Shown one piece after another: positions 941 to 45,553 of a DNA stretch of 64,000 bases. The stretch's first letter is position 1. Every line of letters starts with the position of its first letter. Both the position numbers and the translations under genes were made by a program. The stretch is from positions 82,195 through 146,194 of the forward strand of contig CALRHV010000001.1 of NCBI GenBank assembly GCA_943359525.1, given 5' to 3'. The notes beneath the pieces were generated by a model. The model made no database searches. It was given only the letters and a program-made list of their open reading frames with translations, and had not been told where the DNA came from. The DNA is from Candidatus Uhrbacteria bacterium (GTDB taxonomy: Bacteria > Patescibacteriota > Patescibacteriia > UBA9934).

Positions 941-1318
941 CTACGCTCGAACGGAATCGCTCTTCCGTTCCCACGTGCCGGTTCCGTCTGGGGAACGAAC
1001 GTTCGTTGCCGCACGCTGAAACGCGATCGCCTTCGGGTTGACCACCCGATCGTTGGACTGATAGATCCCCTCGCGACGAACCGACGCCGGAACGTAGGAG
1101 AGCTCAGCCGAGAACATCGCGCCGGGCGCGAACAGGAGCGCGATCTGTTCACGCGATTTTCCAGCGAAGTGCATTACGCGGAGCGGAAGGCCGCGTTCGG
1201 TGCACAGACGGTAGATCTTGCCGTCGGCGTCCACGAAAATCGTAAACTCCACCAGCGGTTCACCTTTGCCGGAATCGACGACTTCGCATGAACGAACAAC
1301 ACACAGGAACTGGGACAT
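941..1318 (-). CDS. hypothetical protein
   Basis: ORF 941..1366 (-); trimmed to ATG 1318 (MSQFLCVV...), which has an AAGGAG spaced ~5 nt upstream. Confidence 0.45.
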   Translation of the reverse strand: MSQFLCVVRSCEVVDSGKGEPLVEFTIFVDADGKIYRLCTERGLPLRVMHFAGKSREQIALLFAPGAMFSAELSYVPASVRREGIYQSNDRVVNPKAIAFQRAATNVRSPDGTGTWERKSDSVRA

Positions 1319-1394
1319 GGAAGGCTCCTTCTTCTGCAGTGAACTCTCTTCGTCCGAAATGGACACGTCACGCTAACACAATATCAGAAAAAAG

Positions 1395-1712
1395 TTAAGA
1401 GGAGGACGGCTCCACGTGATTCACCCATCCGTCAATTCGACGCATCTCCTTATCGATCATCGGCCCCTCATATTCACCGCTATGTGCGTGATTTGATCCG
1501 TACGACGGCTTCTTCTGATCAAGGTGCAAGCTGAACAGTACTTCGTCGCCTTTATGATCGACGTACAAATGAAATCGAGGATAGAACTCCCCCGTCAAAC
1601 GCAACACAAAACTATTCTCTCCGCTCTGCGGATCCGTAAACGCCGAATACCCCGCCTTCCGCAAAACGGCCAACGGGCTGTGCATCACCTTTTTATCGTA
1701 TGTGACTTTCAT
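1395..1712 (-). CDS. hypothetical small protein
   Basis: ORF 1395..1802 (-) overlaps the tRNA gene, so it was trimmed to the internal start MKVTYDKK at 1712. The product has a plausible globular composition. Confidence 0.4.
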   Translation of the reverse strand: MKVTYDKKVMHSPLAVLRKAGYSAFTDPQSGENSFVLRLTGEFYPRFHLYVDHKGDEVLFSLHLDQKKPSYGSNHAHSGEYEGPMIDKEMRRIDGWVNHVEPSSS

Positions 1713-1755
1713 ACCGCCAGTGTAACAAAAAAGAACCGCGGAGGCGATTCTTTGT

Positions 1756-1843
1756 TGGCGGAAGGGGAGAGATTCGAACTCTCGATACCTTGCGGTATAC
1801 ACGCGTTCCAGGCGTGCGCACTAGGCCACTATGCGACCCTTCC
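1756..1843 (-). tRNA. tRNA-Ser (anticodon GGA)
   Basis: Reverse complement folds as a cloverleaf: acceptor GGAAGGG/CCCTTCC, anticodon stem CACGC/GCGTG with loop CTGGAAC, long variable arm, T-arm GAGAG-TTCGAAT-CTCTC, discriminator G, encoded CCA. Confidence 0.85.
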
Positions 1844-1882
1844 GTATTTGGGTGACGGAAGAATAGCTGATATTATCCTTCC

Positions 1883-3130
1883 ATGCAATTCGACGATTCA
1901 GAACATTTCGACGTCATCGTTATTGGCGGCGGAGCTTCCGGGCTTATGGCTGCGGCGACCGCGGCAAGCCGTGGCAAGCGGGTTTTGATACTCGAAAAAA
2001 ATCCGGAGTGCGGACGAAAGCTGTCGATTTCCGGTGGCGGACGGTGCAATATTACCAACGCCGAGTTCGACACACATCTGTTTTCCGATAACTACGGCGA
2101 TGCAAAGAAGTTCCTGCTTTCTGCATTCTCCCAGTTCGGCGTTCAAGAAACTTTCGATTACTTCAATTCACGAGGGCTAGCATTCATCACCGAAGCTCGT
2201 AAACGCGCGTTTCCGATCACTCACTCGGCTCCCGACGTGACGAATCTCCTCCTCGACGAATGCAAAAAGCACCACGTCAGAATTCAAACCTCCTCCCCTG
2301 TCATCAAAATCGATTTCTTCGAGAATGAAATTCTTTCTGTTTCAACTCGAAACGTTACGTACACTGCGACCTCGTATATCTTCGCCACCGGCGGATCGTC
2401 GCATCCAGAAACCGGATCAACTGGCGACGGATTCCCGTGGCTCTCCAAACTCGGCCACACCGTCGTTACTCCAACACCGTCACTCGTTCCGCTTGCGGTT
2501 CGTGAGCGTTGGGTGACCGATCTCCAAGGGATCACGGTCAAAGACGTGAAGATTTCGTTTACCGTCGACGGCCGTAAAGCATTCAACAAAAAGGGCTCTA
2601 TTCTCTTTACACACTTCGGGATCTCCGGGCCAACCGTGCTGCACTCCGCAAAAGGCGTCGCCGATCTGCTCCCCGAGGGCGAAGTCGTCGCACATCTTGA
2701 TCTCTTCCCTACCCTCGACGAAGGCACACTCAGCCGAAATCTTGTCGAGCTCTTCGACGCGCACAAGAACACGATGATCAAGAACGTATTCGCGGGAATG
2801 CTGCTTACCGGAATCGTGAATCGATCATTGGTGGTCGCTGAAATCGACCCCGATATGCAAGTGAACAGCGTCACCAAGGAACAACGTTCCCGTCTCGTCA
2901 AAGCATTCAAGGATCTTTCCTTCCCTATCGACGGCCTCCTTGGCATGGACAAAGCCATCATCGCCGACGGCGGAGTTCCTCTCTCCGAAGTGTCGATGCA
3001 GACGATGAAAAGCAAAATCGTCTCCAATCTCTTCCTCACCGGTGACCTCTTCCACATCGTCCGCCCCTCCGGTGGCTACTCCCTCCAACTCTGCTGGACG
3101 ACAGGATTTATTGCAGGAAACGCAGCGTAA
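1883..3130 (+). CDS. HI0933/YhiN-family NAD(P)/FAD-dependent flavoprotein (BaiN-like)
   Basis: 415 aa; N-terminal dinucleotide-binding motif VIVIGGGASGLMAA; family-typical GGGRCNITN and C-terminal motifs. Confidence 0.8.
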   Translation: MQFDDSEHFDVIVIGGGASGLMAAATAASRGKRVLILEKNPECGRKLSISGGGRCNITNAEFDTHLFSDNYGDAKKFLLSAFSQFGVQETFDYFNSRGLAFITEARKRAFPITHSAPDVTNLLLDECKKHHVRIQTSSPVIKIDFFENEILSVSTRNVTYTATSYIFATGGSSHPETGSTGDGFPWLSKLGHTVVTPTPSLVPLAVRERWVTDLQGITVKDVKISFTVDGRKAFNKKGSILFTHFGISGPTVLHSAKGVADLLPEGEVVAHLDLFPTLDEGTLSRNLVELFDAHKNTMIKNVFAGMLLTGIVNRSLVVAEIDPDMQVNSVTKEQRSRLVKAFKDLSFPIDGLLGMDKAIIADGGVPLSEVSMQTMKSKIVSNLFLTGDLFHIVRPSGGYSLQLCWTTGFIAGNAA

Positions 3131-8622: not shown

Positions 8623-10707
<2,085 letters not shown>

Positions 10708-10787
10708 AATCTGATCTTAGACGGGTTGTGAGATTAGTGTGAAAGGCAGGGAGTGCGGGTGCTGCGACAGAAAACGGTACCCTCTGT

Positions 10788-16735: not shown

Positions 16736-18550
16736 TTATCGCTTTAAGACTTTCATATACGCCTCGCTTGGGATGTCCACGGATCCCACACCCATCGCAA
16801 GCATTTTCTTTTTTCCTTTTTTCTGTTTCTCGAGCAACTTCAATTTTCGCGTAAAGTCTCCACCATACAATCCCGATGTCACGTCTTTTCGCATTGCGGA
16901 AATTCGTTCACCGGCAACAACTTTTCCACCAATCATCGCCTGCAACTTGATGACGAATTGCTGACGAGGAATACTGTCTTTCAAAATCTCGAGCACACGA
17001 CGACCAACACGCTCTGCTTCGTTGCGATACACCATCATCGCAAACGCATCCACGTTTTCGTCGGCGACTGAAATATCCAGTCGTACCACATCGGCTTCGC
17101 GATAGGTGAACACGTCATAACTCATCGAGGCATATCCACTCGAGGCGCCTTTGAGTTTATCGTTGAAGTCCACAATAATCGCAGACAACGGAATTTCGTA
17201 GTGAATCAATGCGCGACCTTCTGAAAGGTAGTCCGTATTGAGATAGATCCCACGACGGTCTTGTGCGAGACTCATCACGTTTCCGATGGAATCCACTGGA
17301 GTAATAATATCGATCTTTGCCCACGGTTCCTCAATACGATCCAAGAAACTCGGATCCGGGAGATCGAGCGCACTCTTCACGACCTCGAATTGATCAGGTG
17401 CCGCATTCGCTCGAAATACGTGATACGCCACCGACGGAAGCGTAACAACGAGATCGATCGTAAACTCGCGACTCAATCGTTCCTTCAAGATCTCGAGATG
17501 GAGCATGCCTAAAAATCCACAACGGAATCCGTAGCCGAGTGCTGGTGAATGCTCAGGCTCAAACACGAGCGCGGCGTCGTTCAGCTTCAGCCGATCCATC
17601 GCGTCGCGCAGTGCGCCATACTCATCGCCTTGCGCTGGAAATACACCAGCGAACACCATCGGCCGTACCTCGCGATATCCGTGCAACGCTTCAACAGGCG
17701 CAACCACCGGAAGTGTGGTCATGGTGTCCCCAACTCTACAGGCCCGAATATCTTTCAATCCCGTAACGATGTAGCCGATCTGACCAGTTTCGAGCTCGTC
17801 AAGCGGCGAAAACTTTGGCGTTAATGCTCCAAGCTCCAAGATTTCTCCTTCAGCTTCCGTTGCGAGTAATTTCAACTTGTCTTTCTTTTTGAACGTGCCG
17901 TCCATCACGCGAACGTATGCCACAACACCTTTGTAGTCGTCGTAAGCAGAATCAAAAATGACGGCACGCGGCGGCTTTGTTTCCGATCCCTCTGGCGACG
18001 GAATGCGGTCAATAATGACATCGAGCAACTCGCGAACGCCTGCGCCAGTTTTTCCTGACACTTCCAAAATCGAATCTGGATCACATCCAAGAAGCTTCAC
18101 GAGCTCGGCTTTCCGAGTAGGCACATCGGCGGCCGGAAGATCGATCTTATTCAACACCGGGATGATTTCGAGATTTTCTTCGACGGCAAGGTACAGGTTC
18201 GCGATGGTTTGTGCTTGGACGCCTTGCGTGGCATCGACGAGAAGGACGGCACCGTTCACCGACGCCAACGATCGGCTTACCTCGTAGTTAAAGTCGATAT
18301 GGCCTGGGGTATCGATAAGGTTCAGCGTGTAGTCCACATCGTTCTTTTTCCAGACCATTCGAGCTGGGGCAAGCTTGATAGTGATTCCCCGTTCTCGCTC
18401 AATATCCATGGAATCGAGCACCTGGTCCTTCATGACGCGCTTGTCGATAGTGCCAGTTACCTCCAAAAGCCGGTCCGAAAGCGTGGATTTTCCGTGGTCG
18501 ATGTGAGCAATGATGCAGAAATTGCGAATGTTTTTCTGTAGGACGGGCAT
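16736..18550 (-). CDS. lepA: elongation factor 4
   Basis: 604 aa; GTPase G1 AHIDHGKST and the LepA-specific C-terminal domain. Confidence 0.9.
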   Translation of the reverse strand: MPVLQKNIRNFCIIAHIDHGKSTLSDRLLEVTGTIDKRVMKDQVLDSMDIERERGITIKLAPARMVWKKNDVDYTLNLIDTPGHIDFNYEVSRSLASVNGAVLLVDATQGVQAQTIANLYLAVEENLEIIPVLNKIDLPAADVPTRKAELVKLLGCDPDSILEVSGKTGAGVRELLDVIIDRIPSPEGSETKPPRAVIFDSAYDDYKGVVAYVRVMDGTFKKKDKLKLLATEAEGEILELGALTPKFSPLDELETGQIGYIVTGLKDIRACRVGDTMTTLPVVAPVEALHGYREVRPMVFAGVFPAQGDEYGALRDAMDRLKLNDAALVFEPEHSPALGYGFRCGFLGMLHLEILKERLSREFTIDLVVTLPSVAYHVFRANAAPDQFEVVKSALDLPDPSFLDRIEEPWAKIDIITPVDSIGNVMSLAQDRRGIYLNTDYLSEGRALIHYEIPLSAIIVDFNDKLKGASSGYASMSYDVFTYREADVVRLDISVADENVDAFAMMVYRNEAERVGRRVLEILKDSIPRQQFVIKLQAMIGGKVVAGERISAMRKDVTSGLYGGDFTRKLKLLEKQKKGKKKMLAMGVGSVDIPSEAYMKVLKR

Positions 18551-18590
18551 ATTTGGTAAAAATCGTACCGTATTTTACGAAAGCCTGCAA

Positions 18591-18619
18591 TTGACGTATC
18601 CTTCATTTTAGGCTAATAT
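18591..18619 (+). promoter_or_regulatory. sigma70-like promoter
   Basis: TTGACG, a 17-nt spacer, then TAATAT; about 60 nt upstream of the ATG at 18679. Confidence 0.45.
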
Positions 18620-18678
18620 TAGATGTTTCTAAGGCTTCGCCCGAGAAACCACCACCTTCCAAAACCTGCGAGGATCTC

Positions 18679-19215
18679 ATGAACTCCACTTGGCCACGTC
18701 GTCAGCGTCAACCGCCCCTCATGTTCAGCGTGCTCACAACGAGTGGCATGCTGGGCGTCGCCCTCAGCATGAGCGCGGACGAATGCGACAGCAAGCTGTT
18801 GTCCATGGCGGCGCTGAAAGAAAAGGCGCTGAAAGATACAGCGACTCGCTACCGCGAGGCCCGAACGGCCGAAACGCAACGATACCAAACCGTCGAGGAA
18901 CCGGCCATCATCTCCGCATTTCTGAAACTCGAAGCGCCACCGGTCGCTGAACCGTTCCTCGCTGCATGGCGCGGAAAACGCGACGCACTCCTGGAACAGC
19001 TCATGGCATTCGGCTACGTCGTGGCCGTCATGGGAACGCTTGAGAATGCGACTGCAGAAAGCCCTGCCACCGGCACGGTTTTCACGATCGAGGGAGTCAC
19101 GGCTGGAGATTTCTTGCTCGTGGGTCGTCGGTGGCGCATTGGCGCAAACGATTCACGGAGAACAACACCGTACAAAAAAGTACCTCAGCACGTCATGACC
19201 GGAGTGAGTCCCTAG
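18679..19215 (+). CDS. hypothetical protein (GC-rich island)
   Basis: 178-aa ORF downstream of the promoter above; local GC is clearly higher than in the flanks. Confidence 0.4.
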   Translation: MNSTWPRRQRQPPLMFSVLTTSGMLGVALSMSADECDSKLLSMAALKEKALKDTATRYREARTAETQRYQTVEEPAIISAFLKLEAPPVAEPFLAAWRGKRDALLEQLMAFGYVVAVMGTLENATAESPATGTVFTIEGVTAGDFLLVGRRWRIGANDSRRTTPYKKVPQHVMTGVSP

Positions 19216-19228
19216 CGGATTCCTCGAA

Positions 19229-19271
19229 CGCGCTACGGCCCGGCTTCCCACGCGGGAGCCGGGCCGTTCGT
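19229..19271. repeat. 42-bp hairpin direct repeat, copy 1
   Basis: CGCGCTACGGCCCGGCTTCCCACGCGGGAGCCGGGCCGTTCGT; identical to 20095..20137; a 9-bp GC stem with a nested TCCC/GGGA stem. Confidence 0.85.
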
Positions 19272-19280
19272 CGTTTCACG

Positions 19281-19658
19281 TTACGAACAGAATTCCTGAA
19301 GTTGTGCGCGTTCGCCGTCGGTGAGTACCGCGTCGCATTTCGCCAAAATGGCGCGACAGAGACCCAGAAGCTTCCTGCGATCAGCACCCAAGGGCTTCCC
19401 GCACTTCGCGCGCGAGATGTACGTTTGCGACACACCAGCTGCGCTCGCGAACTCCCACTGGCGAACATCAGATCGCTGGAGGATGCTCCGAATCATAGCC
19501 GCAAATACATTGTGCTCCTCATCGCTACCCGGCGCATGGGTATTCTCAGAAACGAATATCGCCGTCACACCGGCCTTCGCGAGGTGCTTCAGAAACTCCT
19601 CAAGACCCTCGCCGTCTGCAAGTGTCACGCGGACCGTTCCGCGGAATTCGATCACCAT
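19281..19658 (-). CDS. XRE-type helix-turn-helix domain protein
   Basis: HTH stretch QWEFASAAGVSQTYISRAKCG; start taken at MVIEFRG (19658) rather than 19811 to avoid an Arg-rich leader. Confidence 0.5.
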   Translation of the reverse strand: MVIEFRGTVRVTLADGEGLEEFLKHLAKAGVTAIFVSENTHAPGSDEEHNVFAAMIRSILQRSDVRQWEFASAAGVSQTYISRAKCGKPLGADRRKLLGLCRAILAKCDAVLTDGERAQLQEFCS

Positions 19659-20041
19659 GGGGCGCCTCCAAAGTCCCAAAGCTCCCGTTCGGTCCTGTGA
19701 CGACAGTACAGGTCGATGGCGCCCCAGGAATGGGAGTGCATGTAGTCGCAGATTTCGTCTTCGGGTGCCAGATTCAAGGCCTCGCCGAAGCTGGTGAATG
19801 CCGCGCACCACTCGTCGTCCTCGGGTTTATATGCCCGATTCCAATGAGCAATAGCGCGTTCCACGGCAGCCAGAGCGACTTCTCCGAGCTTGTTTTTGGC
19901 GATCGTCCGCGATTCAGAGTACCGATGGTGCAGATACAAACCGAGCAGCACCACCAAAGGGATGCCGCACGTAACGGGGAGAAAGATCGTGACGATGAAT
20001 TCGAGGAAACCTGATGGGAACATGGGGAGTCTCCAATGCAA
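19652..20041 (-). CDS. hypothetical small membrane protein
   Basis: 129 aa; N-terminal TM segment; 7-nt overlap with the HTH gene downstream. Confidence 0.4.
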   Translation of the reverse strand: MHWRLPMFPSGFLEFIVTIFLPVTCGIPLVVLLGLYLHHRYSESRTIAKNKLGEVALAAVERAIAHWNRAYKPEDDEWCAAFTSFGEALNLAPEDEICDYMHSHSWGAIDLYCRHRTERELWDFGGAPW

Positions 20042-20094
20042 AAGATACTAAAAACTCTCGATTCCCGCAATATTTTGAGTAAAATCTCCACAAT

Positions 20095-20137
20095 CGCGCT
20101 ACGGCCCGGCTTCCCACGCGGGAGCCGGGCCGTTCGT
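20095..20137. repeat. 42-bp hairpin direct repeat, copy 2
   Basis: Identical to 19229..19271. Confidence 0.85.
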
Positions 20138-20140
20138 TGT

Positions 20141-20848
20141 TCAGTTTACCTGCGCAGCACGACACGCATCTTCCAGCGCCGCGAGCGCCACAAGGACGAG
20201 AAGGATCCGGTCGATCGACTGCAGATTGTGACCATGTGCCTCCCATCCTTCGTTGTTGTCACGCGGACGGTCAATATCTGCAACCCCGAAGCATGCGCAG
20301 TTGATGCCAACCGACATGTGCAGTGTGCCGGAATATTCCTCCACCGACCGCGAACTGATGGCCGCAGAATCTCCACACATCTGACGTTCCGCTCGTATCA
20401 CCGCACTGGTGACATCTCGGAATACGTCGGCTCGTACCGCGCGGATGAACCTCGCGAATCGCCCAGACGCAGCGACGGTGATGTCGGCCACACCGTATCG
20501 CAACACCAAGGCGTCAATCCACAACAGTTGGCCGCTTGTGTCGTCTTGCAGCTCAGAAAGATCCAAACCCCGAAACGCATCGACGGCGACGCGCAAGGTT
20601 GCAAGGGCGAGCGTCGTCTTTTTCCATTCCTGCGAGCCGATGCGTGCCACGGGAATCCGCAACACCACATGACTCTCTCGACGTTCCAGTTCGTTTTCGC
20701 GGAACTCGATTCCGCCACACGTCACCGCATCAATGAGCGCCCACGTGCGCAACGTCCACGTCACCAGAACCGCGTGTCCGTCCGCCACCAACGACAACGT
20801 CGAGGCAAACGGAGGCTTCGCCTCTTTCATGCACGGTTGAAAAACCAC
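20141..20848 (-). CDS. hypothetical protein (GC-rich island)
   Basis: 235-aa ORF; the antisense ORF 20036..20872 (+) is Arg-rich and looks spurious. Confidence 0.4.
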   Translation of the reverse strand: MVFQPCMKEAKPPFASTLSLVADGHAVLVTWTLRTWALIDAVTCGGIEFRENELERRESHVVLRIPVARIGSQEWKKTTLALATLRVAVDAFRGLDLSELQDDTSGQLLWIDALVLRYGVADITVAASGRFARFIRAVRADVFRDVTSAVIRAERQMCGDSAAISSRSVEEYSGTLHMSVGINCACFGVADIDRPRDNNEGWEAHGHNLQSIDRILLVLVALAALEDACRAAQVN

Positions 20849-20868
20849 GGATCACCTCCAAAAAAAGT

Positions 20869-21957
20869 TTAACACGAAATCACCCCACTGCCGATAAGCT
20901 CTTCGCCACGATAAAACGCAATAAACTGGCCGGGGGCAACGGCGCGTTGAGGTGAAGAGAAGTGAACCGCAAGCTCTAGAGATGGGGTCGGGTCTTGCTT
21001 TTGACGATTTTCGATCGTGCACTCCGCCAACGGCTGACGATAACGAATCCTCGCAAAGATCGGCTCACCGACCGCGCTGTCGATCGCACCGGGAATTGTT
21101 TCGCTGATATTCGTTGCGATCAGATCGGACCGGAACAATGCGGGATCGTCGGCGCCGACTGCAACAACAACCTCATTCGTTTCTGGCTTGCGATCAACAA
21201 CGTACAGCGGCGTGCCCCCACCGATGCCGAGGCCACCGCGTTGACCGATGGTATAGAACTCGAACCCGCGATGCTGACCGAGCACCCGTCCATCTGTCGT
21301 CACAATGTTGCCCTCGTGCGGCGTGATGCGCGCCTCGAGGAATTGCTGCATGTCTACTTGGCCGACGAAACAGATGCCTTGGCTGTCTTTCTTCTCGGCG
21401 ACCGAAAGTTTTTGCTCACGAGCGATTTCGCGTACGCGGGATTTCTGAAGATCGCCGATTGGAAAAAGCGATCGCTTCAACTGTTCTTGATTCAACTGAC
21501 ACAAGAAGTATGTTTGATCTTTTTTTTCATCGAGACCGACGAGAAGATGCGCGAGGCCTTCTGCGCCATCGGTTCTCCGCGCGTAATGACCGGTCGCGAT
21601 GAAATCGCAGCCGAGTGTATCGGCTTCTTTCAAAAAGAGATCGAACTTCATGTACTTGTTGCAGAGCACGTCCGGATTCGGTGTTCGTCCGGCTTTGTAT
21701 TCGTCGATCATGTATTCGTACACTTTTGATCGGTACTCTGCTTCAAAATCGAACGTATAAAATTTCAATCCAAGCTGACCAGCCACACGCATCGCATCGC
21801 GTCGCTCTCGTCGCCATTCGCATTCCTCGCCCTCATCATTCGTGCTCCAGTTCTTCATGAACCCGCCGATGACTTCATATCCTTGTTCCAACAACAAAAC
21901 GGCAGCAACACTGCTGTCCACGCCGCCAGACATTCCAAGGAGAACCTTGTTCGACAT
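20869..21957 (-). CDS. mnmA: tRNA-specific 2-thiouridylase
   Basis: PP-loop SGGVDSS, catalytic Cys residues, C-terminal MnmA domain; start taken at MSNKV. Confidence 0.9.
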   Translation of the reverse strand: MSNKVLLGMSGGVDSSVAAVLLLEQGYEVIGGFMKNWSTNDEGEECEWRRERRDAMRVAGQLGLKFYTFDFEAEYRSKVYEYMIDEYKAGRTPNPDVLCNKYMKFDLFLKEADTLGCDFIATGHYARRTDGAEGLAHLLVGLDEKKDQTYFLCQLNQEQLKRSLFPIGDLQKSRVREIAREQKLSVAEKKDSQGICFVGQVDMQQFLEARITPHEGNIVTTDGRVLGQHRGFEFYTIGQRGGLGIGGGTPLYVVDRKPETNEVVVAVGADDPALFRSDLIATNISETIPGAIDSAVGEPIFARIRYRQPLAECTIENRQKQDPTPSLELAVHFSSPQRAVAPGQFIAFYRGEELIGSGVISC

Positions 21958-21964
21958 ATCGTCA

Positions 21965-22690
21965 TTATCGCACAAACACCTCAAGCTCTGGTTCGGCGAT
22001 CGCAGTAATCCTTTCTTTCGTCACCGGCTGATCAAAGCTCAAGGAACGCGCCATGAGCGCAAGCGCAGTTGATCCGTTCGGCAACTGAATCGCCGCCCTC
22101 GCTCCGTATTTCATATCGCCAACAATCGGCGATCCGATGGACTGCATCGCCACGCGGATTTGGTGCGATCGACCAGTCTTTGGTTTCACCTCCATGAGCA
22201 CACGTCCGCCATCGAACTTCTTCATCACCGACCATCCGGTCTCGGCATACTGCGATCCCGCAACTTCGTGATCAAACGCCTTCGTTGTGTTGTTCGTCTC
22301 ATCTTTCACTAGCCACTGCTTTACAATTCCCGAATCGCCAACGGTGCGATCGGATGATTCGACGACCGCCCAATACACCTTCTCAACAGAATGCGTACGG
22401 AATTGATCGCTTAATCGTCCAGCTCCTTTGCTCGTTTTCCCAAACACCACCACTCCCCCAACCGGCCGGTCGAGGCGGTGAATAAGCCCAAGAAACACAT
22501 TCCCCGGCTTATCCTCGCGCTGCTTCAAAAAATACCGCACCTCGTTAATAAGCGTGGAATCCCCCGTATCGTCCGCCTGCACCAACATTCCGTGCGGCTT
22601 TTGCACAGCGATTATGTGATTGTCTTCGTAGAGGATTGGCACCATAGATTGTAAAATGTCACTGAATAGTCTAACATCCTCGAGCCCCAA
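21965..22690 (-). CDS. RluA-family pseudouridine synthase
   Basis: HRLDRPVGG catalytic-Asp motif; the start may instead be the internal MVPILYED at 22645. Confidence 0.75.
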   Translation of the reverse strand: MGLEDVRLFSDILQSMVPILYEDNHIIAVQKPHGMLVQADDTGDSTLINEVRYFLKQREDKPGNVFLGLIHRLDRPVGGVVVFGKTSKGAGRLSDQFRTHSVEKVYWAVVESSDRTVGDSGIVKQWLVKDETNNTTKAFDHEVAGSQYAETGWSVMKKFDGGRVLMEVKPKTGRSHQIRVAMQSIGSPIVGDMKYGARAAIQLPNGSTALALMARSLSFDQPVTKERITAIAEPELEVFVR

Positions 22691-22702
22691 GGAGAAATCT
22701 CA

Positions 22703-23281
22703 GTGCCCAAGATCCTCGCCCGTTCCGTCATCCCCGACCGTTTCATCCCCACCCATTGCGACAGGTGTGGCGCCCAGTGCCGTGATCGCATCGATTCCGA
22801 CGATTGGAACCAGTACGTCTGTAGCGCAAATCCTCGCCACGCGCGGTGGATTCAGTCTCCACCCGTGGCGTACGTCATCCTCATCGACGAATTCAGTAAC
22901 ACGTACATCGTGGAGCGTGGTATTCCCCCGGCAGTCGGTGGATGGTGCTTCCCCGGTGGATACGTGGACTACGGCGAAACGGCAGAGGAGACCATCGTCC
23001 ACGAAACGTTCGGCGAGGCCTGTATCCGCATCGGCGGCAAGAGAGCCATCTACCTAGGCCAATGGTTCGAGACTGGGCCGGGAGTAACGGTCATCGGGTT
23101 CCTTGTGCACATCCGGCGTGCAGACGCGAACTCCTTCGTCCCAAACACGGAAGCAACGAGCCGCATGGCTGTAAATTTTTGGGATATGGACCCAGAAACG
23201 CTCGCGTTCAACGGAAACCGACTCGCGCTAGCCGCCGCACGGAAAATCGTCCAGAGGGAAACCGCGTTCGAACATCCGTGA
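22703..23281 (+). CDS. NUDIX hydrolase with an N-terminal Cys4 zinc-ribbon
   Basis: CDRCGAQC...C.ANPRH ribbon, then a NUDIX box GGWCFPGGYVDYGETAEETIVHETFGEA in which the usual Arg is His. Confidence 0.6.
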   Translation: MPKILARSVIPDRFIPTHCDRCGAQCRDRIDSDDWNQYVCSANPRHARWIQSPPVAYVILIDEFSNTYIVERGIPPAVGGWCFPGGYVDYGETAEETIVHETFGEACIRIGGKRAIYLGQWFETGPGVTVIGFLVHIRRADANSFVPNTEATSRMAVNFWDMDPETLAFNGNRLALAAARKIVQRETAFEHP

Positions 23282-23405
23282 TCCCACATCAACGCACAAC
23301 ACACGCCGCCGCCCATCAGCACGATCTGATGGGCGGCGATGTCGTTTTTAAACGCAAAGCGCGCTGCGTCTCGGGCGTTCCCCGAATCGCAGCGCGCTCG
23401 TGTGG

Positions 23406-23921
23406 TCACTTGTTGTAGTGCAACTCGACCTCTGCCCAATCCTGGCGATGCGCACAAAGGTAGCAGCTCGTGCCGACCTCGTAATGCGCGCCGCAGGAAC
23501 AGGTCTCAAGGCTCTGCGCACGGATCTCGGAAAGGAGCTGTGGATCGACGTGGTGGCGCCCATCGCGGTCGAAGAAAATCGGCGGAGTCGTTTCCATGCC
23601 GAACACCCAGACTGCGGAGGGGGAGAGAACCCCGAACATGCTCGCGATCGGCGGAATACGCATCGCGTTCACAAGCATGAAAATGCCGTACCCCACTTCA
23701 TCAATCGGCTTTCCGTCGCCAATGAGTAGCACCACCTCGCGAAGCATCGGGATCTGCGCTCGTGGGAGCATTGAGCTCACCTTGGCGCTACCGTTACCCA
23801 CATCCATCACCAGACCAGCATGAACGACCAGCATTCCGTCACTCAACATACACACTCCCGTAAAGGCTTCGAGTTCTCTGCGTCCCCGGGATGGGGAACG
23901 AAAAGTATACACGAAAATCAA
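23406..23921 (-). CDS. hypothetical protein with a C-terminal zinc-ribbon
   Basis: 171 aa; C-terminal CSCGAHYEVGTSCYLC. Confidence 0.4.
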   Translation of the reverse strand: MIFVYTFRSPSRGRRELEAFTGVCMLSDGMLVVHAGLVMDVGNGSAKVSSMLPRAQIPMLREVVLLIGDGKPIDEVGYGIFMLVNAMRIPPIASMFGVLSPSAVWVFGMETTPPIFFDRDGRHHVDPQLLSEIRAQSLETCSCGAHYEVGTSCYLCAHRQDWAEVELHYNK

Positions 23922-28130: not shown

Positions 28131-28219
28131 GTCATCCCCGCGGCCTGTCCCCCGGAGGGGGAAGGCGGGGATCCATCATTCCGAACGATCTGGATCCCCG
28201 CCTACGCGGGGATGACCAG
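28131..28219. repeat. composite of two GTCATCCCCGCG...GGGGATCC hairpin repeats (family i)
   Basis: GTCATCCCCGCGGCC-[CCCCCGGAGGGGG]-GGCGGGGATCC, then CTGGATCCCCGCCTACGCGGGGATGACCAG. Confidence 0.8.
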
Positions 28220-28238
28220 ACGGAACAAGAGATCTCGT

Positions 28239-29124: not shown

Positions 29125-31953
29125 CTATTTCCCACAACACTTCTTAAACTTCTTTCCACTTCCGCAATGACATGGTTCGTTTGGTCGAGGTTTTTTGGAG
29201 GAATCGCTCTGGATCCCCGCCTGTGCGGGGATGACTGAGCCGGATGGGATGACGGAGTCTAAAGGAGCAACGGCAGGATTTGATTCTGCCTTCTCCGCCG
29301 GCACATCGATCACCGTTGTTCCGCCACTGGATTGCTGCGATAAAAACTGCACCGCGTTGCGCATGAGTTGAGGAGCGGTTTCCATGATGTGCTTTGCGGC
29401 GAGATGTTGGTCGATGATTTTGAAGAGGTTGTACGAAACTTCGCGGCCGAGTTCGGAACGCATCGTGTTGTAGAGGCGATACGATTCGCGCTTGTATTCA
29501 ACAAGAGGATCACGCTGGGCGTAACCTTGCAACCCGATGGTACGGCGCAAGTAGGTCATGTCGTCCAAGTGCTGCATCCACAGCGTGTCGTTGGCGCGCA
29601 ACAAAATATTACGCTCAAGCGCCATAAGGTGTTTTGCATCACCAAACTTTTCAATAGCACCATCGTATGCACGACGAATTGCGCCGTTGACGATCTCGAT
29701 GACGTGGCTGCGTTGATACGCAAGATTTTCTTTGTCGATCGAAAGCGTCGAAAGTTCTTCACGAATCGCAGTCGATTCCCCGTCCTCGAGTTTCACGATC
29801 GTGCTGAGGCTTTCAACAATTTCTTGCGGATCCCAATCTGGCTTGCCCGCCTCGTCTTCTACGAAATCCTTCGGCACGTCGGCTTCCGCCTTGCTCGTGT
29901 GAAAGAACACCACACGTTCGATTTCTTTTTCAACAATTGAGTGCACGAGTTCATGCGCTTTCTCCTCATTCTTCATGACCTCTTTGCGTTCGTTGTACAC
30001 GGCAGTGCGATGCTTATTCAGCACGTCGTCGTATTCCAACACGTGTTTACGTGTGTCGAAGTGATGACCTTCCACACGCTGCTGCGATTTCTCAAGCGCC
30101 TTTGTGACCATCTTGCTTTCGATTGGTGTTGCATCGTCAATACCGAGTTTGTCCATCATACCTTTCACACGATCGCTTCCGAAGATACGCATCAAGTCGT
30201 CGTCGAGTGACACAAAGAACTGCGTGCTACCAGGATCACCTTGGCGACCAGCGCGTCCACGGAGCTGATTGTCGATGCGACGTGATTCGTGGCGTTCGGT
30301 GCCGATCACGTGCAAACCACCGAGCTTCTTTACCTCGTCCGCCATTGCCGCATCCACTGGGTTTCCACCAAGCAAAATGTCCACACCACGCCCAGCCATG
30401 TTTGTGGCAAGTGTTACCGCGCCACGTCGTCCAGCCTGTGCGATAATTTCGCCTTCACGTTCGTGGTTCTTTGCGTTGAGTGTGTTGTGAATAACGCCAG
30501 CCGCAGTAAGAAACTTTGAGAGCGCTTCGTTCTTGTCGATCGACACGGTTCCGATGAGGACTGGCTGACCGATCTCGTTCAAACGCTTCACTTCTTCAAC
30601 AACCGCCATCCACTTTCCCATTTCATTCTTGTAAATGCGATCTGGTAAATCCTTACGACGCGCTTCGTGATTGGTTGGAATAGTGACAACGTCGAGTTTA
30701 TAAATCTTCGCGAATTCCTCGGCTTCCGTGCTCGCCGTTCCGGTCATACCAGAAAGCTTCTCGTACATGCGGAAATAATTCTGGAACGTAATCGTTGCGA
30801 GCGTCTTGCTCTCGCGCTGAATTTTCACACCTTCCTTTGCCTCAATCGCTTGGTGCAAACCCTCCGAATATCGACGGCCTTCCATGATGCGACCAGTGAA
30901 TTCATCAACAATCAATACTTCGCCAGTGCGAACGACGTAGTCACGATCGATCTTAAACAACGAGTGTGCTTTCAATGCCTGCTCGGCGTGATGAACCATC
31001 GCAAGTCCTTCTTCGTAAATATTTTTCACGTTGAGTAAGCGCTCCAACTTTTGCAAGCCGTTTTCCGTGAACGTTGAAACGCGCATCTTCTCGTCGATAT
31101 TAAAATCTTCGCCCTCAACACAATTCCTGATGACGTCGGCGAATCGATAATACAGATCTGTCGATTCTTGCGCCGCAGCAGAAATAATCAACGGTGTACG
31201 TGCTTCGTCGATGAGAATTGAGTCGACCTCGTCCACAATAGCGTAATGCAAACCGCGCTGCACAACGTCCTCGGCACGACTCGCCATGTTGTCGCGTAAG
31301 TAATCGAAACCGAATTCATTGTTCGTACCGTACGTAATGTCGGCAGCATACGCTTGAGATCGGCTCACTGGACGCAACGAATCGGATGCGACGTGGAAAC
31401 CAGCAACAGTCTCCGCGCCTTCTGCTGGTGTCTCCACCTTAAAATCTGCGTCGTAAATATATCCACTTTCGTGCTGAATACACGCGACGGTTAAACCAAG
31501 CGACGCAAACACACGGCCCATCCACACAGAGTCGCGCTTTGCCAAATAGTCGTTCACCGTCACAAGGTGAACACCTTTTCCGGTGAGTGCGTTGAGATAC
31601 GTCGGCGCAGTTGCCGTGAGCGTCTTTCCCTCACCGGTTCGCATTTCCGCGATTGCTCCACGATGCAACGAAAGTCCGCCCATCATTTGCACATCAAAAT
31701 GACGTTGACCGAGTACGCGCTTACTCGCTTCACGAACAACAGCAAACGCCTCGTGCGCCATAGAATCAAGCGTCTCCCCGTTCGCGAGCCTTTCGCGGAA
31801 CGTCTGCGTCTTTGCTTTCAGCTCTTCTGCAGACAACGCTTTCAGTCCTTCCTCGAGTGCTGCAATTTTTTCAGCATCCTTCTTAAGATTCTTAACAACT
31901 TTTGCGTTTGGATCACCGAAAATCGTGGAAAGAGAGAAGGCCATAGATGGCAA
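29125..31953 (-). CDS. secA: preprotein translocase ATPase SecA; its C-terminal linker carries an in-frame insertion of a family (i) repeat
   Basis: 942 aa; DEAD-like motor, PPXD, HSD/HWD domains and a C-terminal zinc motif CHCGSGKKFKKCC; residues SVIPSGSVIPAQAGIQ are encoded by the repeat at 29209..29253. Confidence 0.95.
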   Translation of the reverse strand: MPSMAFSLSTIFGDPNAKVVKNLKKDAEKIAALEEGLKALSAEELKAKTQTFRERLANGETLDSMAHEAFAVVREASKRVLGQRHFDVQMMGGLSLHRGAIAEMRTGEGKTLTATAPTYLNALTGKGVHLVTVNDYLAKRDSVWMGRVFASLGLTVACIQHESGYIYDADFKVETPAEGAETVAGFHVASDSLRPVSRSQAYAADITYGTNNEFGFDYLRDNMASRAEDVVQRGLHYAIVDEVDSILIDEARTPLIISAAAQESTDLYYRFADVIRNCVEGEDFNIDEKMRVSTFTENGLQKLERLLNVKNIYEEGLAMVHHAEQALKAHSLFKIDRDYVVRTGEVLIVDEFTGRIMEGRRYSEGLHQAIEAKEGVKIQRESKTLATITFQNYFRMYEKLSGMTGTASTEAEEFAKIYKLDVVTIPTNHEARRKDLPDRIYKNEMGKWMAVVEEVKRLNEIGQPVLIGTVSIDKNEALSKFLTAAGVIHNTLNAKNHEREGEIIAQAGRRGAVTLATNMAGRGVDILLGGNPVDAAMADEVKKLGGLHVIGTERHESRRIDNQLRGRAGRQGDPGSTQFFVSLDDDLMRIFGSDRVKGMMDKLGIDDATPIESKMVTKALEKSQQRVEGHHFDTRKHVLEYDDVLNKHRTAVYNERKEVMKNEEKAHELVHSIVEKEIERVVFFHTSKAEADVPKDFVEDEAGKPDWDPQEIVESLSTIVKLEDGESTAIREELSTLSIDKENLAYQRSHVIEIVNGAIRRAYDGAIEKFGDAKHLMALERNILLRANDTLWMQHLDDMTYLRRTIGLQGYAQRDPLVEYKRESYRLYNTMRSELGREVSYNLFKIIDQHLAAKHIMETAPQLMRNAVQFLSQQSSGGTTVIDVPAEKAESNPAVAPLDSVIPSGSVIPAQAGIQSDSSKKPRPNEPCHCGSGKKFKKCCGK
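29209..29253. repeat. family (i) hairpin repeat inside the secA coding sequence
   Basis: CTGGATCCCCGCCTGTGCGGGGATGAC plus TGAGCCGGATGGGATGAC; the secA frame reads through it as VIPAQAGIQ. Confidence 0.85.
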
Positions 31954-32232: not shown

Positions 32233-32637
32233 CTATGGCTTCGCTGATCGACCCCCTCTATCTCCCCCTTGAAAAGGGGGAGGACATGAGGCTGCAATCT
32301 GAAGAAGAACGCCGTCCAAATTTCTCATCACATCATTATTCGTGAATCGAAGGATTCGAAAATCAAGACCGATTAAATATGCAGTGCGTTCTGCATCGTA
32401 AACCAACCCTTCTCGAGTAAAATGAGAATCTCCATCAACCTCAATCACTATACGATGCATCGGCGAACAGAAATCAACAATAAAAGATCCAATTCCAAAT
32501 TGACGGCGAAACTTTATCCCAAGAGTGCCGTTTCGTAATTCTTTCCAAAGTATTCTTTCTGGTATTGTCATGCTTCCGCGAAGATTTCTCCGACGTTCAA
32601 TGCTCCACGCAGGATTAAATAGCTTCGTCATACACAC
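32233..32637 (-). CDS. DUF559 (Vsr-like endonuclease fold) domain protein in an AT-rich insert
   Basis: ERILWKELRN...FRRQ..IG.FIVDF......VIEVDG.SH layout; the body is AT-rich relative to the flanks; the C-terminus runs into a G5 hairpin repeat. Confidence 0.6.
   Translation of the reverse strand: MCMTKLFNPAWSIERRRNLRGSMTIPERILWKELRNGTLGIKFRRQFGIGSFIVDFCSPMHRIVIEVDGDSHFTREGLVYDAERTAYLIGLDFRILRFTNNDVMRNLDGVLLQIAASCPPPFQGGDRGGRSAKP
32252..32283. repeat. G5/C5 hairpin repeat (family iii)
   Basis: CCCCCTCTATCTCCCCCTTGAAAAGGGGGAGG. Confidence 0.8.
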
Positions 32638-32640
32638 CCC

Positions 32641-32738
32641 CTCCTTACTCCCCCTTGAAAAGGGGGAGGGACATAAACTAAACCGAACGTAGCCCCACTT
32701 ATTCCTCTCCCCCTTTTCAAGGGGGAGTCGGAGGGGGT
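32641..32738. repeat. two further family (iii) hairpins in tandem
   Basis: CTCCCCCTTGAAAAGGGGGAGGG ... CTCCCCCTTTTCAAGGGGGAG ... GGAGGGGGTC. Confidence 0.8.
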
Positions 32739-38397: not shown

Positions 38398-38448
38398 CGT
38401 CTAACCTACGAGAGATGGTTACTGGATCCCCGCCTTCGCGGGGATGAC
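38398..38448. repeat. chimeric family (ii)/(i) hairpin repeat between convergent folD and uvrA
   Basis: CTAACCTACGAGAGAT (a family ii arm fragment) followed by CTGGATCCCCGCCTTCGCGGGGATGACTGA. Confidence 0.8.
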
Positions 38449-38457
38449 TGATAAAAA

Positions 38458-40983: not shown

Positions 40984-43095
40984 TTACGTTCTCCGAGATC
41001 GTTTTTCCTTCTTTCCCTTCTTCATTCCCAACAGCTCCTTGCTCAACAACGCGATCTCGTCTCGCAGAATCGCCGCAGTCTCGAACAACAGGTTCGCCGA
41101 CGCTTTGTCCATTTCAATCTCCTTCTCACGAATTGCTTCTTCAATCTCAACCGGGGTCGCGCTGATTTCGATGTTCAGAATCTTCGAGGTGTCGGCTTCG
41201 AAGTTTCTGTCGAGTTCTGCGCGAATGTCTTTAATCGTTTTAATGATCGTCTGCGGCGTGATGCTGTGTTTGACGTTGTGTGCAATTTGGATGTTGCGAC
41301 GACGTTCGGTTTCTTTCAGCGCCCTGTCGAGCGATCCCGTCATCTTGTCGGCATACAGAACGACCAAGCCGTTGATGTTTCGCGCAGCACGACCGATGGT
41401 TTGAATGAGCGAGGTTTCCGATCGCAGGAAGCCTTCCTTGTCCGCGTCGAGCACGCCGATGAGTGACACCTCAGGAAGATCGAGCCCCTCACGAAGCAAG
41501 TTCACTCCGACGACAACGTCGTATGTTCCCTTTCGCAACTCAGTGAGAATCGTAATCCGATCGAGCGTTTCGACATCGGAATGGAGATACGCCACTTTCA
41601 TGCCGCCTTCTTTCAGGTACGCTGTTAAATCCTCGGCCATCTTTTTTGTGAGCGTGGTGACGAGTGCGCGTTCGCCTTTGGTGACACGATCTTTGATGCG
41701 TTCGGTGATGTCGGAGACTTGGCCGGGGAAGCCCCCTCCAACTCCCCCATAAATGGGGGAGAGGTTATCACCGAGCGGCCCCCCTCCATTTATGGAGGGG
41801 CTGGGGGAGGCGAGCGTCGCCGTCACCGGCAATACCAATGTCTCTGGGTCGACTAAACCGGTTGGACGAATGATTTGCTCAACAATCTGCTCCGATGTTT
41901 CTTTTTCGACGACTCCCGGTGTTGCAGATACGTACACGGTTTGACCGATCGTTTTATCGAACTCTTGGTACGTAAGCGGTCGATTATCCTTCGCCGATGG
42001 GAGACGGAAACCGAAATCAACGAGCGTTTGTTTTCGCGCCTGATCACCAGCGAACATTCCGCCAATCTGTGGGAGCGTGACGTGTGATTCGTCGATGATG
42101 GTAAGAAAATCTTTCGGAAAGTATGACAGCAACGTGTGTGCCGGTTCACCAACACGACGTCCATCAAAGTGACGTGAATAGTTTTCAATACCACTGCAAT
42201 ACCCAACGTTCCGAATCATCTCGATATCGTATCGCGTTCGTCGCATGAGGCGCTCCGATTCTAAAAGCTTCCCTTCTTTCTCGAACTCCCTCAAACGATC
42301 CGCGAGCTCGTTCTCGATGTCGCGAATTGCCCGTTCACGCTCGGCGCTATCGGACATGAAATGCTTCGCCGGAAAGAACCACGCGTCCTCGTTCTGTGTG
42401 ATGATCTTTCGCGTAACCTTATTCAACGAAAAAATCTCACGCACCGCGTTTCCTTCAATCACAATCCGATACACGATTTCATCACTCGGCGGCATGACTT
42501 CGATAACGTCGCCATTTGCGCGAAAGTGGCCACGAGTAAGATCGGCATTCGTGCGTTCGTACTGCATCGAAACAAGCTGACGAAGAAAGTCTGCACGATC
42601 GATCCGGTCGCCGACTCGCATATGAAGCACCTCGCGTTTGTATGCTTCCGGCGAACCTAATCCATAAATACAGCTCACCGAGGCAACGACGATCACATCG
42701 CGACGGGATAAAAGAGATTGCGTTGCGGCATGGCGAAGGCGATCGATCTCCTCGTTGATCTGCGCGTCCTTCTCAATATACGTGTCTGTTCGCGGCATGT
42801 ACGCCTCTGGCTGGTAGTAGTCGTAATACGAAACGAAGTAGGAAACGGCATTGTCAGGAAAAAACTCGCGGAACTCGGAACAGAGCTGCGCGGCGAGGGT
42901 TTTGTTGTGCGCAATCACCAACGTTGGCTTCTGCACATTTTGAATAACATTCGCCATGGTAAACGTCTTTCCCGAACCCGTCACCCCAAGCAACGTCTGC
43001 CGATGCAAGCCGTCGTTGATGCCGTCCGTCAGATCGGCAATGGCTTTCGGCTGATCACCGGCTGGAGAATATTTTGAGACGAGATTGAAGGGCAT
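40984..43095 (-). CDS. uvrB: excinuclease ABC subunit B with an in-frame insertion of a G5-hairpin repeat
   Basis: Walker A GVTGSGKT, DESH, helicase C domain; the stretch LASPSPSINGGGPLGDNLSPIYGGVGGGFPG after RPTG is encoded by the repeat at 41731..41810; start taken at MPFNL (43095). Confidence 0.9.
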   Translation of the reverse strand: MPFNLVSKYSPAGDQPKAIADLTDGINDGLHRQTLLGVTGSGKTFTMANVIQNVQKPTLVIAHNKTLAAQLCSEFREFFPDNAVSYFVSYYDYYQPEAYMPRTDTYIEKDAQINEEIDRLRHAATQSLLSRRDVIVVASVSCIYGLGSPEAYKREVLHMRVGDRIDRADFLRQLVSMQYERTNADLTRGHFRANGDVIEVMPPSDEIVYRIVIEGNAVREIFSLNKVTRKIITQNEDAWFFPAKHFMSDSAERERAIRDIENELADRLREFEKEGKLLESERLMRRTRYDIEMIRNVGYCSGIENYSRHFDGRRVGEPAHTLLSYFPKDFLTIIDESHVTLPQIGGMFAGDQARKQTLVDFGFRLPSAKDNRPLTYQEFDKTIGQTVYVSATPGVVEKETSEQIVEQIIRPTGLVDPETLVLPVTATLASPSPSINGGGPLGDNLSPIYGGVGGGFPGQVSDITERIKDRVTKGERALVTTLTKKMAEDLTAYLKEGGMKVAYLHSDVETLDRITILTELRKGTYDVVVGVNLLREGLDLPEVSLIGVLDADKEGFLRSETSLIQTIGRAARNINGLVVLYADKMTGSLDRALKETERRRNIQIAHNVKHSITPQTIIKTIKDIRAELDRNFEADTSKILNIEISATPVEIEEAIREKEIEMDKASANLLFETAAILRDEIALLSKELLGMKKGKKEKRSRRT
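41731..41810. repeat. family (iii) G5/C5 hairpin repeat inside the uvrB coding sequence
   Basis: CCCCCTCCAACTCCCCCATAAATGGGGGAGAGG...CCCCTCCATTTATGGAGGGGCTGGGGGAGG: two palindromic hairpins. Confidence 0.85.
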
Positions 43096-44691: not shown

Positions 44692-44764
44692 CCAAAACAG
44701 CAGGATTCTGCTACATTTTCTTGTCCACGCACTCCCGCGTGGCGACACCTTCCTGGGTTCACAC

Positions 44765-45416: not shown

Positions 45417-45526
45417 CCACAGTCACGATCACCCCACGACGGGCCGCCCACCAGCGGCTCGTTTGCGTTTTGGCGTGTTACAATCGAGGACGAAACTCAT
45501 CTTCTCCGTTTTCCTTAACATTTCCC

Positions 45527-45553
45527 TTGGATCCCCGCTTTCGCGAGGATGAC
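45527..45553. repeat. family (i) hairpin repeat (slightly degenerate)
   Basis: TTGGATCCCCGCTTTCGCGAGGATGAC. Confidence 0.7.

Follow-up and report, generated by a model that had tools for sequence, protein, structure and literature searches.

We analysed a 64-kb stretch of a Candidatus Uhrbacteria genome (the window; coordinates are window positions) in which two housekeeping genes, lepA and mnmA, enclose an island of small genes. Two copies of one hairpin, H1 and H2, stand in this island in direct orientation, and between them lies a self-contained unit of 866 bp, the cassette, made of an AT-rich leader, the membrane-protein gene mem123 and HTH125, a gene for a helix-turn-helix (HTH) protein. 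The gene p235 lies on the mnmA side of the cassette, and p178, convergent with the others, on the lepA side (Table 1). Comparison with sister genomes indicates that the hairpin is a native and conserved 3' hairpin of p235, and that it probably marks a small hotspot of gain and loss where the sisters lack the cassette or carry other cargo, such as a retron.

The island and its repeated hairpin

Table 1. Coordinates of the island features and their flanking genes (ORFan, open reading frame without recognised family; RBS, ribosome-binding site).
Feature	Position	Strand	Remarks
lepA	16736-18550	-	Pfam GTP_EFTU/LepA_C; conserved flank of the variable island
Sigma-70-like promoter candidate for p178, TTGACG-17-TAATAT	18591-18619	+	scan match, 9/12
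p178	18679-19215	+	ORFan, convergent with the p235 side; type-1 convergent gene
Hairpin copy H1	19221-19275 (exact core 19229-19271)	none	between the HTH125 stop and the p178 stop
HTH125	19281-19658	-	125 aa; weak XRE/Cro-like helix-turn-helix
mem123	19652-20023	-	123-aa membrane protein
Cassette leader/promoter region	20024-20094	-	AT-rich, RBS GGAGAC; from sequence
Hairpin copy H2	20087-20141 (exact core 20095-20137)	none	directly after the p235 stop, upstream of the cassette
p235	20141-20848	-	anchor gene of the island; co-oriented with mnmA
mnmA	20869-21984	-	Pfam tRNA_Me_trans; conserved flank

The exact repeat, CGCGCTACGGCCCGGCTTCCCACGCGGGAGCCGGGCCGTTCGT, is 43 nt long and occurs exactly twice on the + strand; no third copy was found in the 64 kb even at three mismatches, and none is expected in shuffled sequences. 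Similarity between the copies reaches beyond this core, to 55 nt at 93% identity. The initial annotation had reported identical direct hairpin repeats of 42 bp at these two places: they are real, and one nucleotide longer. Each folds as a hairpin whose 14-bp stem is closed by a 5-nt loop and stands on a short lower stem (dG -33 to -37 kcal/mol, z -3.3 to -5.6). The stop codons of p235, HTH125 and p178 are 4-13 nt away from the adjoining copy, and H1 holds the position of a bidirectional terminator between convergent genes. Read in the p178 (+) sense, the stem has a conserved, U-rich tail behind it, GUUCGUYGUUU; a terminator scan called H2 on the + strand, and H2 is the only copy that passes the 5-of-8 T rule. 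The left flank of H1, CGTGAAAC, is common to the hairpin that follows mem in the relative L096. Both window copies also carry a derived C-A/G-U position not seen in relatives, which fits a duplication or gene conversion within this lineage.

Positions 18580-20870 have a GC content of 0.576 against a window mean of 0.517 (z 3.1) and form the GC-richest 2.3 kb of the window: among 618 sliding 2.29-kb segments, four reach this value and all four overlap the island. GC at third codon positions is raised as well (0.64-0.68 in the island genes versus 0.56-0.58 in lepA and mnmA), and the compositional jump between the two flanking genes described in the initial annotation is thus borne out. The 2.35-kb island is present at 100% identity in three further records (ERZ27280328, ERZ27280264 and GCA_964685005.1; the second and third may represent a single assembly) and is therefore no artefact of one assembly.

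As for expression signals, p235 has a GTG start with an RBS (GGAGG) 20 nt after mnmA, and in the cassette the start of HTH125 overlaps the stop of mem123 (ATGGTGA). The promoter candidate TTGACG-17-TAATAT, first described as near-consensus, is indeed present, 60 nt upstream of the p178 start in the 128-nt divergent spacer between lepA and p178. Sites of this type are no commoner in the region than in shuffles (12 versus 12.0), so the motif alone is weak evidence for a p178 promoter. The proximal 31 nt of the mem leader are conserved with the mem leader of a relative, L095/L096 (local alignment score 38 versus a shuffle maximum of 32), the whole leader measuring ~70 nt in the window versus 250 nt there. 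The longer leader also contains two 15-nt palindromes, TGACACTNAGTGTCA (L095/L096 1-15 and 127-141), 126 nt apart, which the short leader of the window lacks and which may form an operator pair.

The island proteins are largely without known kin. No match to p178, mem123 or p235 was found in Pfam, PADLOC, PHROGs or NCBIfam, and family searches were also negative for the convergent genes and other ORFans of relatives. p178 has a hydrophobic N-terminus and a conserved Cys-Asp; homologs with 31-39% identity occupy the same position in L088 and L098, while L092 and L095 have an unrelated gene of 253-258 aa there. For p235 we found seven close homologs (51-100% identity) and only 20 matches in 1.84e9 representatives, and none of the ten distant ones scanned had a Pfam domain (0/10). 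It carries conserved His/Cys motifs, and its moderately confident AlphaFold2 (AF2) model (predicted local distance difference test score, pLDDT, 77.5; predicted template modelling score 0.83) has no convincing neighbour in the PDB. The AF2 model of mem123, also moderately confident (pLDDT 77.5), shows a single N-terminal transmembrane helix and a four-helix soluble domain without a PDB fold match; its single homolog in 5.8e9 proteins, P0009 (61-62% identity), lies at the same locus in L095/L096.

The same 5.8e9 proteins hold no homolog of HTH125 but itself. The layout of the genes between and beyond the repeats is as the initial annotation gave it, but its XRE-type label for HTH125 traces back to sub-threshold matches: with an N-terminal domain of ~45 aa, the protein reaches 12.7 bits against Pfam HTH_3 (cut-off 23; E=0.13), is likewise sub-threshold for HTH_31, and gives E=0.01 with TIGR03070, far below that model's cut-off. 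A PHROG 1468 repressor match has a value of 4.5e-5. We regard HTH125 as HTH-like and not as a certified member of the XRE family. The cassette is not recognisable as a type II toxin-antitoxin (TA) pair of HigBA-like order: the operon overlap is present, but mem has no family match, the HTH protein has only the weak TIGR03070 one, and mem occurs in L095/L096 without an HTH gene. Our guess, offered with low confidence, is that the cassette may be a small self-regulated membrane-protein module of the addiction or defence type.

Hairpin and cargo in sister genomes

Sister genomes (relatives carry the labels L0xx and L1xx) were found through the genomic contexts of p235 and mem homologs, and the nearest lepA loci belong to metagenome-assembled genomes of Patescibacteria/Parcubacteria type. 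Their arrangements are given in Table 2.

Table 2. Arrangement of the locus in the window and in sister genomes, in p235 orientation (conv, convergent gene; H, hairpin; RT, reverse transcriptase). L099 and L095/L096 form a composite locus joined through a 27-28-nt contig overlap.
Locus	Arrangement
Window	mnmA - p235 - H - [leader-mem-HTH] - H - p178(conv) - lepA
L088	mnmA - TauE - 174 aa open reading frame - p235 - H - 155(conv) - lepA
L098	p235 - H - 177(conv) - lepA
L092	mnmA - p235 - H - 258(conv) - lepA
L099+L095/L096	mnmA - p235 - HA - [retron-type RT, inverted, ~270 nt upstream] - HB - [250-nt leader - mem] - HC - second hairpin - 253(conv) - lepA
L101	p235 - H - retron-type RT (inverted) ...

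The empty site that the initial annotation proposed to look for exists: in the cassette-free L088, L098 and L092 exactly one hairpin stands between p235 and the convergent gene, and nothing else. Each arrangement has one hairpin more than it has inserted units. In the composite locus HB, between two divergent units, is a degenerate copy. HTH125 is absent from L095/L096, where mem stands alone. H2 is orthologous to the single hairpin found with the same flanks 3' of p235 in L088, L092, L098, L099 and L101.

We aligned nine hairpin copies from six lineages over ~50 nt and assessed covariation on the six distinct sequences among them. Pairing is kept in 96% of cells, 5 of 18 pairs are changed on both sides versus 2.1±0.9 in shuffles (3/500 shuffles), and pairing collapses once the partner is slid by a column or more. 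With six sequences only, this is modest but consistent support for a structure that appears to be selected through compensatory changes. Conservation extends to a lower stem AACG/CGTT that has an asymmetric internal loop, and the orientation of the hairpin is constant in all copies. A distant p235 homolog in another context, L116, shares the CGACGAACGG flank, which there precedes a canonical terminator with a U-tract.

This hairpin family occurs at this locus only among 101 related loci, and with two copies in 64 kb it is not the common genome-wide terminator that had been named as a possible refutation. Nor is it a widespread element: none of the matches in scans of JGI metagenomes (9) and IMG/VR (3) came with a homolog of an island gene, and all but one lay in contigs of 65-78% GC (the exception, at 54% GC, was short and not a hairpin), so that we reject this candidate, the pattern matches being mostly generic hairpins of high-GC organisms.

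The other cargo is best seen in L099 and L101, whose RT matches PADLOC RT_III-A (1.4e-35), has NAKFH and YGDD motifs and matches the NCBIfam retron St85 family at 1.5e-31, below that model's cut-off. The genes lie at 1484-2632 (-) in L099, with 2633-2905, and at 1011-2294 (-) in L101; L100 has one as well. In L099 the RT has ~270 nt of GC-rich, structured sequence upstream of it, is convergent with p235 and has hairpin copies as its boundaries. No RT was found in the window island by the list of open reading frames (ORFs), by Pfam, PADLOC, PHROG and NCBIfam or by a motif scan. Two other identities for the relatives' RT were rejected. A group II intron of the terminator-targeting class C is contradicted by the match to retron families (TIGR04416 gives only 5e-8), by the lack of an Rfam intron match and by the ~50 nt only that separate the RT stop from the p235 stop; a diversity-generating retroelement, by the conserved and not variable C-terminus of p235 and by the retron-type RT with its NAxxH motif. 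We also rejected a candidate circle junction, a resemblance between the right flank of the relative's third hairpin and the window's cassette leader, as its score of 21 lies below the shuffle maximum of 26.

The composition and divergence of these loci bear on the age of the island. In every relative p235, the convergent gene and the cargo have 57-63% GC, against 50-53% for mnmA and lepA, and the compositional jump is therefore a shared property of the locus and not a sign of recent acquisition; the GC-rich island is old, fast-evolving and common to the genus, with rapid evolution in p235 and the convergent gene. By pairwise identities, not a tree, sister genomes agree at 92-98% of amino acids in lepA, 77-88% in mnmA and 52-84% in p235. 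Two allele types of p235 can be told apart, type 1 in the window, L088 and L098, and type 2 in L092, L099 and L101. The convergent gene tracks this type, being p178-like with type 1 and 253/258-like with type 2, the two mutually unrelated. This grouping disagrees with lepA: L088 and L092 share 98% in lepA but 58% in p235. Between the window and L095/L096, mem is 62% and p235 61% identical; with a divergence equal to that of p235, mem gives no proof of a recent cassette. On the simplest reading mem was at the locus before the allele types split and has since disappeared on two or more occasions, a single intact hairpin remaining each time; separate acquisitions of mem are also conceivable.

These comparisons correct a first impression of recent foreign insertion. 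The module that the initial annotation took to be recently integrated or excisable is indeed a discrete, variably present segment, but its recency is not sustained, with the island GC-rich in all relatives and mem diverged like p235. Conservation of composition and arrangement, named there as what would count against such a module, holds for the GC-richness, which all relatives have in common, and fails for the cassette, which some of them lack. The repeats also look like copies of p235's own 3' hairpin and not like att-like foreign sites. Orthologs of the hairpin occur in wild metagenomes, which excludes the other proposal, a pair of cloned terminators in the sense of an artificial construct.

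Further variation was seen around the locus. The window lacks an IS200-like Y1 transposase gene that stands between rnhA and pilM in L088 (14381-15019) and L092 (14230-14886). These Y1_Tnp genes are ~5 kb away, and their loci contained no additional copy of the island hairpin. Between lepA and recJ, extra ORFans occur in L088 (11352-12011, -) and L095 (3504-4220, - and 4321-4980, -), in a gap that measures only ~80 nt in the window and forms a second small variable site adjoining the island. Among the distant lepA relatives L008-L087 only L009 and L010 keep mnmA upstream, with different genes between, and synteny is uninformative.

How the cassette may come and go

We read the repeats, with moderate confidence, as a duplicated bidirectional terminator whose direct repeats permit precise loss or gain of the cassette by homologous recombination. 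The 43-nt repeat would be the native 3' stem-loop of the mnmA-p235 transcription unit. Placed between p235 and the convergent gene, it would most likely serve both of them as an intrinsic terminator or act as an insulator, and it would have been duplicated as extra transcription units came to adjoin it. H2 would stop read-through from p235 into the cassette, and H1 would end both the cassette transcript and that of the convergent p178. Recombination or replication slippage between the direct repeats of 43-55 bp could delete the cassette precisely, one hairpin remaining, and a genome with a single hairpin could take the cassette up again there from a circle or from a copy flanked by hairpins. 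Repeat recombination would thus yield one, two or three hairpins with no cargo, mem, mem plus HTH or a retron module. The sequence, its fold and covariation, its placement relative to genes and the distribution among relatives are observed; termination activity, the route of recombination and the direction of events (gain versus loss) are what we infer here.

Hairpin placement at the 3' ends of genes, the covariation, the canonical terminator of L116, the one-hairpin empty sites, the derived position common to both window copies and the lack of a recognised recombinase in the annotated genes and scanned ORFs support this reading, and we count the decay of HB in its favour, because no terminator is needed between two divergent units. 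Several points weigh on the other side. In the p235 (-) sense the tail after the stem, GUAGCGCG, has no U-tract. The hairpin is conserved at 88-93% of nucleotides over 50-67 nt versus 80-83% in lepA, and the loop motif RCGTG and the flanks are conserved too, beyond the needs of a plain terminator. Repeats of 43-55 bp would be short for RecA-dependent recombination, and the origin of the first duplication is left without explanation. In addition, hairpins in one constant orientation bound unrelated cargo (an inverted retron, mem), which looks site-specific.

No recombinase was recognised among the Pfam-annotated genes around the island, which are housekeeping only, or in ten ORFs further out, and no tyrosine-recombinase box II motif was found in window ORFs of at least 150 aa. 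The only window enzyme found with a tyrosine-recombinase-like mechanism is a type IB topoisomerase 33 kb away (52116-53120, -; Topoisom_I 7.8e-36, Top1B_N_bact 9.7e-21). Two Logan assemblies (k=31) contain p235, p178 and lepA at 100% identity, with contigs that stop exactly 30 nt inside H1 and H2 (L002/L004 start at window position 19258, L006 ends at 20108), the signature of a branching repeat. Logan has no recorded contig with mem or HTH125, a pattern that may reflect a mixed population of occupied and empty sites or a mere gap in the record.

How much of this calls for recombination at all is the question behind a rival that we consider unlikely, if a serious contender: that the cassette and both hairpins are ancestral, each transcription unit having kept a terminator copy of its own under strong purifying selection, and that relatives lost the genes by ordinary deletion, with no mobility. 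Constraint, and not recombination between the copies, would then account for their identity. Orthologous hairpins are ~90% identical though p235 is only 52-61% identical, and therefore the 93-100% identity of paralogous copies would need no recent event; the parallel divergence of mem and p235 and the GC-rich composition of all relatives agree with it. But cassette loss in two or more allele lineages (type 1, L088/L098; type 2, L092) ended exactly at hairpin boundaries and spared one intact hairpin, as expected of repeat-mediated and not of random deletion. The derived mismatch common to both window copies also speaks against this rival, as does the L099 retron module, again bounded by a further hairpin copy.

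The constant orientation of the hairpins suggests instead a dedicated recombination site, acting folded or as a palindromic duplex in the manner of attC, Xer/dif or res, for a recombinase encoded elsewhere. Each cassette would be mobile with one copy, and integration of its circle at the resident hairpin would give the direct repeats. The same hairpin in the same orientation bounds three different cargos, including the reverse-oriented retron module; the empty site has exactly one copy; conservation of sequence, RCGTG loop and flanks exceeds that of neighbouring coding DNA; and the conserved lower stem with its asymmetric internal loop would suit such a site, as would Logan contigs that branch at the hairpin with no cassette contig recorded, which could reflect a mixed population. 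The same architecture has been published for a ParE/RelE operon with a duplicated res-like palindrome and a one-copy empty site (PMC13617665). Yet we judge this unlikely. The annotated genes around the island and the scanned ORFs hold no tyrosine or serine recombinase or transposase, the distant topoisomerase IB being the only related enzyme; neither the attC R-box (RYYYAAC/GTTRRRY) nor the dif consensus is matched; there is no GC-skew turn at the site; the family is confined to one locus among those fetched and absent from the JGI metagenome and viral scans; and the divergence of mem, as large as that of p235, speaks against recent mobility. Quite improbable in our view is the fuller form of this idea, a hitherto undescribed, structure-specific cassette-exchange system of Patescibacteria in which small modules with their own expression signals (the retron, the membrane protein alone or with the HTH protein) would each bring one hairpin and be inserted and excised at the terminator of a resident gene as docking site, the recombinase lying elsewhere in the genome: integron-like, without IntI or attC.

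The palindrome might finally be an operator for the cassette's own HTH protein, two sites around the operon allowing looping or autoregulation. A perfect 14-bp inverted repeat does stand ~70 nt upstream of mem and another just after the HTH gene, which itself lies inside the cassette. However, the hairpin is conserved in L088, L092, L098, L099 and L101, all without an HTH125 homolog, and this makes the operator reading very improbable; its compensatory changes, moreover, preserve pairing and not a fixed half-site, and it sits at gene 3' ends.

Patescibacteria have tiny genomes, and the gain and loss of their accessory genes are little known. The locus is a compact case, with housekeeping genes around a fast-evolving island and a single conserved hairpin at every cargo boundary, the retron included. 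If repeat-mediated recombination at a terminator suffices, as we favour, it would offer a simple route of gene flux without mobile-element machinery; if a dedicated recombinase is involved, this would be a new cassette system.

Other repeats and patches were seen elsewhere in the window. A dispersed family of hairpins resembling repetitive extragenic palindromic (REP) elements, TGGATCCCCGCC..GCGGGGATGAC, has five copies (28189-28223, 29208-29242, 38421-38455, 45526-45560 and 62484-62518; 71-94% identity) and has no relation to the island hairpin; at least one of them directly follows the end of a gene, and one is close to or within the 3' end of secA. Two further families of short repeats, GTCATCCTGAACGAAGTGAAGGATCTC and GAGATTCTTCGCTTCGCTCAGAATGAC (10663-10714, 60775-60826 and 62240-62291, with partners at 57225-57254, 60840-60869 and 62303-62332), resemble the two halves of one dispersed hairpin, and a terminator-like hairpin family, CTCCCCCTTGAAAAGGGGGAG, has three copies (32252-32283, 32638-32669 and 41732-41763). 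A second GC-rich patch (0.58-0.62) at 22700-23900 holds a NUDIX gene, a 171-aa ORF and a palindromic hairpin of 32-34 nt (23306-23339) with a terminator call on both strands. A further accessory patch may lie at 43888-47278, with four ORFs of 263-294 aa (GC 0.54-0.55): Pfam gives nothing for three of them, and for the fourth only a stretch resembling the C-terminal domain of RNA polymerase alpha.

Comparison with known systems

Bidirectional intrinsic terminators between convergent genes are alike in position and shape: the island hairpin has a GC-rich 14-bp stem-loop a few nucleotides past the stops of convergent genes, compensatory changes, a U-rich side and a distant ortholog that is a canonical terminator. 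It differs from them in lacking a U-tract in the p235 sense, in the unusual conservation of sequence, loop and flanks, and in being duplicated or triplicated around modules, with one copy where termination is not needed.

Site-specific systems share other features. Xer/dif modules (such as integrative mobile elements exploiting Xer, IMEX, and pdif modules) use a 28-nt dif-like site of 11-6-11 structure, and the chromosomal dif lies at a skew turn. By-eye comparison with the dif consensus showed no dif-like AT-rich arms in the sequence, and the cumulative GC skew falls monotonically through 14-26 kb. Like integron cassettes and clusters of attC sites lacking integron-integrases (CALIN), the locus has an imperfect palindrome after each unit, constant palindrome orientation, copies as homogeneous as in chromosomal arrays and a variable number of units; unlike them, it has no IntI or attI and no matching R''/R' boxes, its one or two units have promoters of their own, one being inverted, and its palindrome is the probable terminator of a resident gene. 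No IntI or attI was found beside the array, which ends at mnmA and lepA, and by eye the flanks, (G/A)ACGAAC and GTAGCGC / GTTCGTY, agree with the attC boxes RYYYAAC...GTTRRRY only in AAC/GTT. Where integron ORFs are mostly promoterless and co-oriented, the cassette here has its own leader and the retron unit is inverted. Of the hallmarks of a prophage, a satellite or another integrative element, the direct repeats and the single-copy empty site are present; neither the 866-bp unit nor the genes annotated or scanned elsewhere in the window yielded an integrase, and IMG/VR gave no related sequence. An origin from IS200/IS605 insertion sequences, palindrome-associated transposable elements (PATE) or REP/RAYT elements was rejected, as the hairpin has two copies in 64 kb and one locus in 101, and empty sites keep it.

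Three published cases are also close. In Photorhabdus laumondii TT01 a ParE/RelE TA operon lies between duplicated res-I-like palindromes, of which a sister empty site has one (PMC13617665). That two-gene module resembles ours in having its own promoter, two near-identical palindromes, a one-copy relative and no mobility gene. It differs in that its palindromes are 24 bp long and Tn3 res-like and its cargo is a recognisable TA pair, while here a native terminator-like hairpin of 43-55 nt, without similarity to known recombination sites, surrounds ORFan cargo. Retron-Eco5 (Ec107) replaces a 34-bp intergenic palindrome without mobility genes, and strains vary in the retron or ORF found at one locus (PMC6868368); likewise, L099 and L101 carry a retron-type RT module at a palindromic intergenic site after p235, also without mobility genes, and cargo at the locus differs between strains. 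Ec107 replaces its palindrome, however, whereas ours is kept and duplicated, and the window has no RT. At a larger scale, accessory hotspots can be flanked by core genes, as with the core defence hotspots of Pseudomonas (PMC10250203). The likeness lies in small variable accessory genes, with a retron in relatives, between the housekeeping mnmA and lepA, and the difference in the tiny size of our locus (0.8-3.5 kb), in genes that are all ORFans except for the retron and in a repeated hairpin as unit boundary. Small modules beside duplicated palindromes in core-gene hotspots are already known in kind, and the locus described here is a new variant of them.

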